The translations under genes and the position numbers were made by a program. A stretch of DNA of 61,810 bases, the filler included, from Globobulimina sp. (lineage: Eukaryota): the NCBI GenBank assembly GCA_003354225.1. It is 12 parts of 12 records of this genome, joined end to end, with 100 filler letters (N's around TTAATTAATTAA, not from the genome) between each part and the next. Parts side by side here need not be neighbours in the genome. Positions count along the whole stretch, not along the records: positions 15,496 to 20,556 come from PIVH01000750.1; 11 more parts are not named here. One strand, 5' to 3'. Positions within the stretch are counted from its first letter, which is position 1, and every line of letters begins with the position of its first letter. Of the stretch, positions 15,552 through 18,488 are shown piece after piece. The notes beneath the pieces were generated by a model. That model did not search any database and was not told where the DNA came from. It saw only the letters and a list, made by a program, of their open reading frames with translations.

Positions 15552-18488
15552 TTATAGTACATTTTGAATCATACTCTTTGATGCATTTGCTTGTGTTATT
15601 TGATTAAATTTATAAGTCAATAAATGTAAATACTTTGTTTCATCTTCTTTTTTATGTATAATTATTTTTGAATCATATTGACAAATATCCCATTCTGATT
15701 CTCCATTTTTTGACTTATAATTGTCTGACAATAATCCCTTATGATGAATGATAATATATTTCAATTTATTAGTTGCTGCCACTGCTAAATTGTCAATAAC
15801 CCCTTCAATTGTTAATTTTAACTTATTTTTTGAAGCATAGTTGTTAAAATATTCAATTTGTTCTAAATTAGGAAATAATTTTAATACAAAATTTAAATCA
15901 AAAAACATATCTGACTCATTAATACATAACAAATTTTTTAATTCTTCTACAACTTCCATATGATGCCAAAATAGCATGATATGAGTCAAATTTATACAAT
16001 ATCTGCTCAATAAATTTACAATATATTCCGGAAATGCATCAGAATTAAAATCATTGTTTTTCATCAATTGATAAGACAACAATGAACAGCATAATCCAAT
16101 CGAGTCAGCAGTAAATTTATAATTACATCTATTATCAGTCTCCATTGCTCCATTATATTTAATGCATTTATATATTTCCTATACATCACACCATTGCTTA
16201 TATTGATAATATTCGTAATTATCATCATTGGCACTCCACCAACAAATAAACATTCTTTTTCATTGCTAAAATCACTGAAAAATGCACAAGCAAAATATTT
16301 TGCGTGCAATAAATAAGTGGATGACGAATACTTTAATTCTAAAACCAGCCCAATATCGCCACTGAAATTGAAAGCAACCGTTGGTTCGGTCGAGGTACTT
16401 AACGGCGCATTAAATTTTGTAATAGTTCTCGTGAAATATAATAATTGATTCACGCCATGATAAAATGTTTGATTTCCATTGGCAATTAAACTGAAACCAA
16501 AATATTCAATTAAATCACGTAAATATCTCGAACAAAAAAAAGAAACAATGTCTATTTTTTAATGATTCAATGCTTTCATTATATGGAATTCGTCGAAATG
16601 TCTCACTCCATTTTGCTTGATATTCATCACAATTACAATATATTAATAATGATAAAATATGATTAATAGACAAATCTTTATCAATGCCTTCGTTGATATG
16701 GTCCGATTGCATCTTTTTAACTTGTTCAGTCTTCATATATTGCACACATTTATTATATTCTTTGTCATATTCATCAATGTCAATATTACATATTTCATTA
16801 TAAATAAATTCAGATTTTAGTGTTTGATATTTTGTTTCAACAAACCATTCCGATGACTTTTGTTCATATTCAAACCGTTCACCAAAACTATACACATCTT
16901 TGTTTTTATTAAGATTATTATTGTTACCATCTTCCAGTTGTTTTAAATCAGAGTTAAATTTATTGCTCAATACATTATAATTACACGCATGTTTTCTGTG
17001 TTTAAGCATTCGATGGATTTCAGATATTCTCTCATCGCTATCTCCAAATTGTTGCGACACTCTAATTCTCGCAAATGAATCATACGAATGATAATAAAAC
17101 GAATGTAATTTATCTAAAATATCTGGTATTGAATAATATCCATTGTCGACATCTTCATTCAGTTCACTGCTTTCTTTTGCGTCGTCATCGATACTCAAAA
17201 CATGTACAGATTTGTTTATTTTATTAACAAACCGTCTTCGCCGTGAATAATGCCTTGAATATATCTCACAACTCTCATAATTACAGCCCACAGCTCCAGA
17301 ACTACGATAAGTTAACTTTTCGTAAATTGCATCAAAATCTTGATCAGAATCGTGATATTCTAATAAATGCTGAAAAGAATTCAAAATGTCAGCTGCATCA
17401 TATAATTCATATTTATTATCGTCGACATCGTGATAATTGTTCAAAATATGAAATAACTTTTTAAACTGTGAACATTTGTCAATAATACAAATGTAATGGA
17501 TATCTACTTGACTCATTTGTAAATTTAACGTTGAGACTGAATTTTTGAGATTTAAATATTGCGATCTTTGCGATTCCTGTTTAGTTAATTTGGTGCATGA
17601 ATATACACAACAAAAATGTGAGTATTTACAACACGTTTTGTAATGTTTATTGTTAAATTTAAATGTCAAATAAATACAAATGGCATAGATGGATTGTTGC
17701 AAAATAAATACAATCTGATATGCTAAGTTAAGCATATTATTCTGCACTGAATGTACCCATCGCCAATATGCGAAGACTTGAAATATAATAAATGCGATGG
17801 TAATAATGGATATGAGATTTGTTTGTTTGATGATAAAATTTTTAAATCTATTGTTTATTTCTAATGATAATATCTCATTATTTGTCTTGGTTAATGACAT
17901 AAATCTGAATAATTTCATATTAAACAAACCTAATATTAAAACAAAATATATCTCAGAGGCAACAGAATATGTCACAGTGGATATAGCTAAGAAGAGTTGA
18001 AATGTTTTATTTGTTGCGAATACAGGAAACCAATGACTTAAAACATGGACGAATGTCAACATTAACCACCAAAATACAATGGTTATAACATAAATAATAT
18101 AACCTATAAAAATACGATGTTTATCAATGGCTAAAAATGTGTCTTTGTAAACATCCTCCAATTTGATGGTAATAAAATAAGCGACTGCGATAAAATTTGT
18201 TACACCCGAAGAGATTCGAAATTGCAATATAATTTTACCAAATGTTGCGAGAACATTTTGATTTGCATCCACTGTCAGGGATAGGTAATTGACACTATTC
18301 CAAATAACAAAAAACGATGAAACCACAATGAACGACACTATGCATATTATTGCTGTATTTTTGATATTGTTTGAGGTTATTTGATGTAAATATTTACATA
18401 AGTCACACAATAATACAATTCCCAAAATTAATGCTGCTGAAAATACGCCAACTGCTATAAGAGAAACTGCTTTGGTAGAAATATCCAT
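15552..18488 (-). CDS. 7TM receptor fused to a Cys/His module and an ADP-ribosyltransferase-like domain; two frameshifts
   Basis: Seven hydrophobic helices, then CxxxxC/HxxxxH motifs, YCN..QAKWSETFRR, FYHGV, PLSTST, SDFSNEKECLFVGG and a C-terminal LFPNL domain. The frame breaks in a T8 run (~16534-16541) and at ~16146. Confidence 0.7.

Follow-up and report, generated by a model that had tools for sequence, protein, structure and literature searches.

A foraminiferal gene joining a seven-helix membrane domain to an ADP-ribosyltransferase-fold module

Receptor-enzyme fusions and the foraminiferal gene

The GPCR-bigrams of oomycetes and other protists are single proteins in which the N-terminal seven-helix domain of a G-protein-coupled receptor (GPCR) precedes a cytoplasmic domain of catalytic type at the C-terminus; GPCR-PIPK, -INPP, -AC, -PDE, and -TKL forms have been described (PMC6033456, PMC5784254). 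We describe here a gene from the foraminifer Globobulimina sp. for which this is the closest known architecture: it has a seven-transmembrane (7TM) domain followed by a C-terminal domain of catalytic type, but with a different partner. The gene lies in a 61,810-nucleotide stretch of DNA (the window) that joins 12 parts of assembly GCA_003354225.1, within the part taken from PIVH01000750.1. The module that follows the membrane helices has a core with the fold of an ADP-ribosyltransferase (ART), which is none of the partners described in PMC6033456 (PIPK, INPP, AC, PDE, TKL), and the 7TM part, unlike that of the GPCR-bigrams, matches no known GPCR family by sequence. The reading we favor, to which we assign a probability of roughly 0.6, is that this intact foraminiferal gene encodes a 984-residue 7TM membrane protein with an ARTC-type tail module that would use NAD+, and that the head would place and probably regulate the enzyme.

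ARTs of the cholera-toxin-like branch (R-S-E, or ARTC) are defined by an Arg on strand 1, S-T-S on strand 2, and a catalytic Glu on strand 5, which stands in E-x-E in arginine-specific members. In this branch the first Glu of E-x-E is associated with the modification of proteins on arginine, and in the H-Y-E branch a His is the NAD+-binding residue at the position of the Arg (PMC3102197). The ART motif-combination table of a recent survey has no family with H, STS, and ExE (PMC12522546). The first-pass annotation of this DNA knew of no described 7TM-ART fusion. Our literature search, supplementary files aside, found neither such a fusion nor a description of this family. The string 'adp-ribos' occurs 0 times in the available text of the GPCR-bigram papers PMC6033456 and PMC5784254, and the supplementary tables of PMC5784254 might list foraminiferal 7TM fusions.

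The gene reads on the minus strand from an ATG at 18488-18486 to a stop at 15554-15552, with the extent and motif positions that the first-pass annotation had given (Table 1). In the assembly it is split into three frame pieces. The first (18488-16542), whose frame first stops at codon 658, encodes hydrophobic helices within its initial 280 residues, then the Cys-rich stretch CCKYSHFCCVYSC, two C-x4-C/H-x4-H units, and a helical stretch. The second, shifted to the +1 frame (16558-16067), holds all three ART-type motifs, FYHG, PLSTS, and NEKE. The third (16178-15555) is in the same frame as the first and extends to the stop at 15552. Base composition predicts a stop-codon probability of 0.087 per codon, at which an open frame of 208 codons has a chance of 6e-9 and one of 126 codons a chance of 1e-5. 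Open frames of these two lengths are improbable by chance, and we therefore regard the observation as real.

The frame slips were analyzed by comparing contigs of four public runs with the stretch. Runs X1, X2, and X6 represent three studies and three organism labels; X1 has the same label as the window and may be the window's own source. Homologues place the first frame join inside the T8 run at 16541-16534 and the second at about 16152, where they carry six more residues than the window. At the first slip, contigs of X1 and X2 gain two letters behind 16533 and differ by one substitution at 16537; the X6 contig ceases to fit at 16538, and its loose letters can be read as agreeing with X1 and X2. 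At the second, 16 extra letters stand behind 16151 in contigs of X1, X2, and X6. Applying these three differences, at the two frameshifts that were marked for repair at first pass, produces a single open reading frame (ORF) of 984 codons. After repair, the local reading is ...RHCFFYFCSRYLRDL... at the first slip, where homologues read RHSHFYHCSKYLRDL, and ...ALNIITCVLNGAMETD... at the second, where they read ALNVINCILNGTLETD. Short introns were considered as well, since removing a 28-nt GT...AG stretch at slip 1 and another of 44 nt at slip 2 would likewise bring the pieces into one frame. We rejected this reading because the enclosed residues (SRYLRDLIEYFGFS...) are conserved in homologues and the other contigs restore the frame by added letters. 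Both frame slips are errors of this assembly, not biology, and the homopolymer slip that had been annotated as part of the gene is no feature of it.

It is very improbable that the window copy is a true pseudogene or that the fusion is a chimera of assembly. Such a reading could draw on the stop at codon 658 of the assembled frame and on the many N gaps and retroelements in the window. The downstream pieces nevertheless remain open, at the chances given above, the only differences between X1 and the window across 1.8 kb are at the two slip sites, and the same fusion occurs in independent contigs and transcripts. One X2 contig of 3065 nt covers the entire gene in a single piece, from the 7TM domain to the C-terminus. 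Its substitutions relative to the window are synonymous in 12 of 21 cases, against an expected 19%, and 0 fall in the core. We conclude that the gene is real, intact, and conserved.

Some contigs differ from the window in length. Six-letter in-frame additions are found behind 15766 in an X2 contig, within the C-terminal domain, and behind 17150 in an X6 contig, within the loop that separates the two Cys/His units; both are differences in length among strains or species. One X2 contig matches only 16431-16475 and 17079-17120, with 584 other letters between, and probably comes from a paralogue with which the gene has its most conserved segments in common.

An ADP-ribosyltransferase-fold core with His in place of Arg

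An ART-like domain had been proposed at first pass, and the core indeed models as an ART fold. AlphaFold, given the window's own 126 residues with 85 relatives, returned a model with a predicted local distance difference test score (pLDDT) of 94.1 and a predicted template modelling score (pTM) of 0.87. The Foldseek matches listed for this model are ADP-ribosyltransferases exclusively. The best of them is TreX (E 1.5e-3, prob 1.00), and rat ART2.2 (prob 1.00) and ExoS (TMq 0.48) are also found. A VIA search of 48161 chains likewise gave ART-superfamily folds only among the 50 matches listed: TreX aligns at Z 8.1 with a root-mean-square deviation (rmsd) of 2.9 over 93 of 128 residues, and ART2.2 at Z 5.7 with an rmsd of 2.6 over 96 residues. 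By the core model and the structural matches listed, the domain has the split beta-sandwich ART fold that characterizes the superfamily.

Profile comparison relates the core to one branch of the superfamily. We gathered 23 PF03496 domains from Clostridia and Bacilli and aligned them to the family alignment with hhalign, which gave 89.3%, E 2.1e-6, and a score of 56.2 over 105 columns; sixty column-shuffled controls had a mean score of 12.6 and a maximum of 19.5. The register places YHG on YRG (H on R), STS on STS, and ExE on ExE. The corresponding values were 0.6% against KptA and 0.08% against DarT, so that the profile is closer to R-S-E (PF03496) than to H-Y-E or H-H-h, with DarT and KptA as the profiles compared.

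Conservation follows the same motifs. In core numbering, G26, S86, E91, and E93 occur in every one of the 85 relatives, S45 in 84, H25 in 81, and T46 in 80, and position 47 is Ser or Thr in all 85. The column aligned to H25 is Arg in 20 of the 23 PF03496 members. The R-S-E motif set proposed at first pass is thus correct in two of its three parts: S-T-S and E-x-E are present in register with PF03496, and the first motif has His instead of Arg. We group the core with the cholera-toxin-like (R-S-E, ARTC) branch, from which it departs in having His at the Arg position.

Single-sequence searches gave weaker signals. When relatives were scanned singly against Pfam at a loose threshold, the ART family PF01129 appeared below threshold in 4 of 56 and 7 of 50 relatives (11/106), with best E values of 2.6e-4 and 1.4e-4, and was the sole recurring enzyme family. 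The window pieces themselves match neither PF01129 nor PF03496, and PF03496 is visible only in the profile-profile comparison. Searches of Pfam, NCBIfam, PADLOC, and PHROGs with the three pieces and close homologues returned no meaningful family, and PDB sequence searches, one with a single piece and one with a profile, found nothing relevant. Because the core lacks the Arg and stays under the Pfam cut-offs, we file it outside PF01129 and PF03496, as a new family that would work in the manner of ARTC enzymes.

Comparisons with phage sequences were set aside. A PF01129 search had no match in T4 or 14 control genomes. Phage tblastn matches of the core have E values of about 5, lie under helicase genes, and are chance. 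T4 ModB aligns with YHG on YRG (P = 0.008, prob 5%) and ModA has P = 0.4; both are too weak alone, and the ModB relatives in viral contigs are near-identical and useless as a profile.

The closest known enzymes are those of the ARTC branch: the ecto-ARTs, toxins of the C2/C3/VIP2 type, and the small Rhs ART toxins. The core resembles the vertebrate ecto-ARTs (rat ART2.2, PF01129), and ARTC enzymes in general, in its fold, in the helical part that precedes the beta core, and in the order of S-T-S and E-x-E. It differs from the ecto-ARTs in having His for Arg, in being cytoplasmic rather than extracellular, and in falling under the Pfam cut-off. In addition, the core here is flanked by Cys/His units and a C-terminal domain and is fused to seven membrane helices. 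With exotoxin ARTs of the C2/C3/VIP2/SpvB type (PF03496) it shares the three motifs in register and a similar S-D-aromatic...E-x-E loop before strand 5; unlike these toxins, it is part of an endogenous eukaryotic membrane protein that is not secreted, and it has His, not Arg. The Rhs ART toxins TreX and TreTu (Xenorhabdus, Salmonella) include the best structural match of the core and have similarly small cores. They are, however, only 15-18% identical to it, and they are bacterial polymorphic toxins with immunity proteins, a context absent here.

The loss of the clade Arg raises the question of whether the core is an enzyme at all. It could be a pseudoenzyme in which the ART fold, made inactive by the replacement of Arg with His, serves for binding or as a scaffold. 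Catalytic residues of pseudoenzymes usually drift. In the diverged relatives of this core, by contrast, the two Glu, the Ser, and the Gly persist in 84-85 of 85, and the His itself in 81. Although pseudo-ARTs are known from eukaryotes (LRRC9; PMC7955679), the same position is held by an NAD+-binding His in the H-Y-E branch (PMC3102197), and we consider a pseudoenzyme quite unlikely.

A related proposal is that the core uses NAD+ without being a protein transferase and acts as an NAD+ glycohydrolase or as a modifier of nucleic acid or a small molecule. Its structural neighbors include NAD+-degrading or non-protein-targeting members (Tne2, Scabin, Arr, pierisin), and the change from Arg to His could alter how NAD+ is held. 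Two features argue for protein modification instead. The closest sequence profiles, PF03496 and PF01129, are of protein-modifying families, and the first Glu of E-x-E, which in R-S-E is tied to arginine-directed modification (PMC3102197), is invariant in 85 of 85 relatives. On balance we judge a core that acts on something other than protein to be unlikely.

The membrane domain, the cytoplasmic module, and their fusion

Seven transmembrane (TM) helices had been annotated at first pass, and homologues support that number. Hydropathy of the window protein alone gives just 5-6 clear segments, whereas the mean hydropathy profile of 24 homologues has exactly seven. Counts of Lys and Arg per loop are 2, 2, 5, and 7 on the inner side versus 0, 0, 1, and 0 on the outer side. 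By this positive-inside count, the predicted topology has the N-terminus outside and the C-terminus inside, with a predicted outer N-terminus about 5 residues long.

The structure of the whole protein was examined through an AlphaFold model of a full-length orthologue (pLDDT 87.3, pTM 0.83). Its membrane helices, in orthologue numbering, are 6-38, 42-74, 78-117, 127-157, 164-205, 208-249, and 254-277, followed by a short eighth, in agreement with the family-mean profile. The sole disordered linker spans residues 316-362. Foldseek matches of this full-length model are class A GPCRs (E 7e-3 to 6e-2) and ART2.2, which is among the best structural matches of both the core model and the orthologue model. 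Residues 1-289 align to Ste2 at Z 18.4 (258 residues aligned, rmsd 4.2), to class A and taste receptors at Z 16.7-17.8, and to microbial rhodopsins at Z 17-18.3. Sequence identity of this 7TM domain to Ste2, class A GPCRs, and microbial rhodopsins is 6-14%. The TM7 consensus, ICIYLTFxFN, is without a conserved mid-helix lysine, which speaks against a retinal protein. In its seven helices, with the N-terminus predicted outside and the C-terminus inside, the domain is like a GPCR; none of the 24 7TM-bearing members belongs to a described GPCR sequence family in Pfam. Searches with the 7TM part alone matched only members of the same foraminiferal family.

The cytoplasmic module begins with a Cys-rich stretch, CCKYSHFCCVYSC, the region of which is modeled in the orthologue as a short helix and then a long one, and in which Y283 and C287 are at least 90% conserved among the 24 homologues. 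The Cys/His region that follows is helical and confidently modeled in the orthologue. The Cys and His columns of both its units are invariant or at least 90% conserved in homologues, and the two units may bind zinc. The helical region before the catalytic core is the counterpart of the helices at the N-terminus of ecto-ART-type enzymes. Relatives have sub-threshold PF01129 matches that extend through this region into HG and STS, and rat ART2.2, with a target length of 223, aligns to the full-length orthologue model over 206-250 columns. The C-terminal alpha/beta domain (residues 834-1019 of the orthologue) is modeled with alternating strands and helices at pLDDT mostly 83-96. Its matches in the whole-protein structure search are weak and fall on the methyltransferase domain of DNMT3A (E about 0.05, TMt 0.29-0.33).

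Table 1. Features of the 7TM-ART gene, in window positions
Feature	Position	Strand	Remarks
Whole gene	15552..18488	-	three frame pieces in the assembly; 984 codons + stop with the differences of other contigs
Seven-helix membrane domain	17652..18473	-	family-mean hydropathy, orthologue model
TM1	18399-18473	-	
TM2	18288-18359	-	
TM3	18159-18251	-	
TM4	18036-18116	-	
TM5	17907-18002	-	
TM6	17751-17819	-	
TM7	17652-17729	-	
Cys-rich stretch CCKYSHFCCVYSC	17595..17633	-	directly after TM7
Cys/His module	17088..17489	-	two C-x4-C units, each with H-x4-H about 35-55 residues on
Cys/His unit 1	C-x4-C 17472-17489, H-x4-H 17352-17369	-	
Cys/His unit 2	C-x4-C 17268-17285, H-x4-H 17088-17105	-	
Helical region before catalytic core	16542..16892	-	YSFGERF to first slip
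Slip 1	16534..16541	-	run of eight T; frame restored in X1 and X2 contigs
ADP-ribosyltransferase-fold core, 126 aa	16154..16531	-	AlphaFold, Foldseek, VIA, hhalign
FYHG	16454-16465	-	
PLSTS	16391-16405	-	
NEKE	16253-16264	-	
Slip 2	16151..16152	-	sixteen letters absent from window, present in X1, X2, and X6 contigs
C-terminal alpha/beta domain	15555..16153	-	end-to-end alignment with homologues

The direct fusion of these parts, as annotated at first pass, recurs in independent sequences. A word-based search found 11 relatives, every one from foraminiferal or environmental data, and homologues come from Bolivina argentea, Nonionella stella, and Ammonia sp., all foraminifera, as well as from metagenome contigs. 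Full-length fused proteins of 944-1011 residues are encoded in the transcriptomes of Bolivina argentea and Nonionella stella, and an Ammonia-like orthologue of 1020 residues is fused on a contig of 3242 nt. The 1020-residue orthologue shares 80% identity with the window gene over the core and 50% over each of the first and last pieces. The transcript-derived proteins, this orthologue, and the 3065-nt X2 contig all have the parts in the same order. In a tree of the core and the upstream helical region (85 rows), all 15 rows headed by 7TM fall in one clade of 23 with support 100; the clade also includes sequences cut at the 5' end and the window's piece. This pattern implies that the 7TM head was joined once and then diversified. 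We conclude that the fusion is real and old, and that the 7TM head is one old version of the module, of single origin.

Variable heads and the role of the membrane domain

The 7TM proteins are part of a much larger set. An exhaustive profile search collected 5564 representatives at 50% identity with E <= 1e-3, 1971 of them at E <= 1e-30, and 20 of the best 150 of these 5564 relatives start within the 7TM part of the profile. The cytoplasmic module forms an uncatalogued foraminiferal family that has no Pfam model and many different N-terminal domains. Among 50 relatives, the heads are PITH in 18, PUB in 14, and UBA in 6-7; PPPDE, CAP-Gly, PH, TLDc, MYND, CUE, ZZ, and RanBP zinc ribbon heads also occur. 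The module looks like a common enzymatic tail whose targeting or sensing is left to a variable head.

Most members without a 7TM domain have heads that bind ubiquitin, the proteasome, or p97. As a lead only, heads of this type hint that the module acts on or near the ubiquitin-proteasome system. Two further copies of the module without a visible 7TM head, and a fragment, lie in the window at 51554-53740 (+), 26262-29863 (+), and 30571-30921 (+). The copy at 51554-53740 starts from an N gap and is interrupted near 52520-52595 by what looks like an intron; the other copy is very diverged, with a long branch in the tree.

In the reading we favor, the core would bind NAD+ and ADP-ribosylate a protein on the inner membrane surface. 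The invariant first Glu of E-x-E makes arginine the likely acceptor under the E-x-E rule (PMC3102197). The seven-helix domain would place the enzyme at the membrane and would probably regulate it.

Several observations weigh against this reading. For the enzyme, the window protein has His where R-S-E is defined by Arg, as do 81 of 85 relatives, and 1 of the 85 has the Arg. No relative exceeds the Pfam cut-off (best 20.8 bits, cut-off 22.3), and none of the 24 7TM-bearing members has even a weak PF01129 match. Taken alone, the 7TM subfamily is weaker in hhalign, at 17% and 61.8%, in the same register. No Foldseek match of the core reaches E <= 1e-3, TM-scores are about 0.45, and the VIA Z values of 5-8 are rated middling by the tool's own note. 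For the head, the 7TM fold fits microbial rhodopsins and GPCRs equally, with Z values tied within 1, so that structure alone does not discriminate between them, and no known 7TM Pfam family recurs among the 24 members even at E <= 10. The full-length structure was predicted for an orthologue rather than for the window protein itself. The many other N-terminal partners of the module fit passive anchoring as well as gating. Enzyme activity, NAD+ use, sensing, ligand gating, and the coupling of head to tail are all properties that we infer.

The main rival to gating is plain anchoring, in which the enzyme part is real and the seven-helix domain only holds it at the membrane and senses nothing. 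We regard this as doubtful, though several features fit it. Elsewhere in the family the module is joined to many adaptor domains that sense nothing (PITH, PUB, UBA, PPPDE, CAP-Gly, PH, TLDc, MYND), no known receptor family matches the 7TM part in the 24 members, and an outer N-terminus of about 5 residues is very short. A single helix would suffice for anchoring, however, and a conserved bundle of seven would be superfluous. The bundle is also conserved unevenly: its cytoplasmic half scores 0.449 versus 0.284 for the outer half (P = 3e-16). Conservation is highest on the cytoplasmic face, at the end of TM5, the third inner loop, and the start of TM6, and the outer face is variable, as in receptor families. 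Finally, the pTM of the full-length orthologue model suggests a fixed arrangement of domains, a further point against a plain anchor.

A stronger version of the proposal is tentative. These proteins may constitute a foraminiferal class of receptor-enzymes in which a 7TM sensor, by changing its conformation, directly switches a His-variant ARTC on its tail, so that an outside signal would be converted to ADP-ribose on proteins at the inner membrane without a G protein. The class would then be one arm of a very large lineage-specific ADP-ribosylation system whose other arms have ubiquitin-, proteasome-, and p97-binding heads.

The surroundings of the gene were also surveyed. Directly upstream on the same strand, at 19012-20157 (-), lies a gene whose product has a pair of ubiquitin-like domains (Pfam ubiquitin E 9e-24; Rad60-SLD E 1e-12), which may be a coincidence. 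Retroelement genes for reverse transcriptase, RNase H, and integrase with an H2C2 finger stand between the family copies at 5484-7445 (-), 20605-21918 (-), and 36083-39526 (+). The window has many N runs, one of them just past the stop of the gene (about 15450-15500). A metallo-beta-lactamase-fold gene at 53760-55271 (+), in two open pieces (Lactamase_B_2 E 1.4e-16) with hydrophobic stretches at its start, adjoins the module copy at 51554-53740.

Receptor-enzyme fusions wire sensing straight to chemistry. The 7TM fusions described so far carry lipid kinases, phosphatases, cyclases, phosphodiesterases, and protein kinases (PMC6033456), and ADP-ribosylation would be a new output for them. A family with the E-x-E signature and at least 5564 representatives at 50% identity stands against the 2010 review, in which arginine-type ADP-ribosyltransferases seem lacking in unicellular eukaryotes (PMC3102197). 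The conserved His in place of Arg blends two classical active-site types and makes the family a natural test case for how NAD+ is held.

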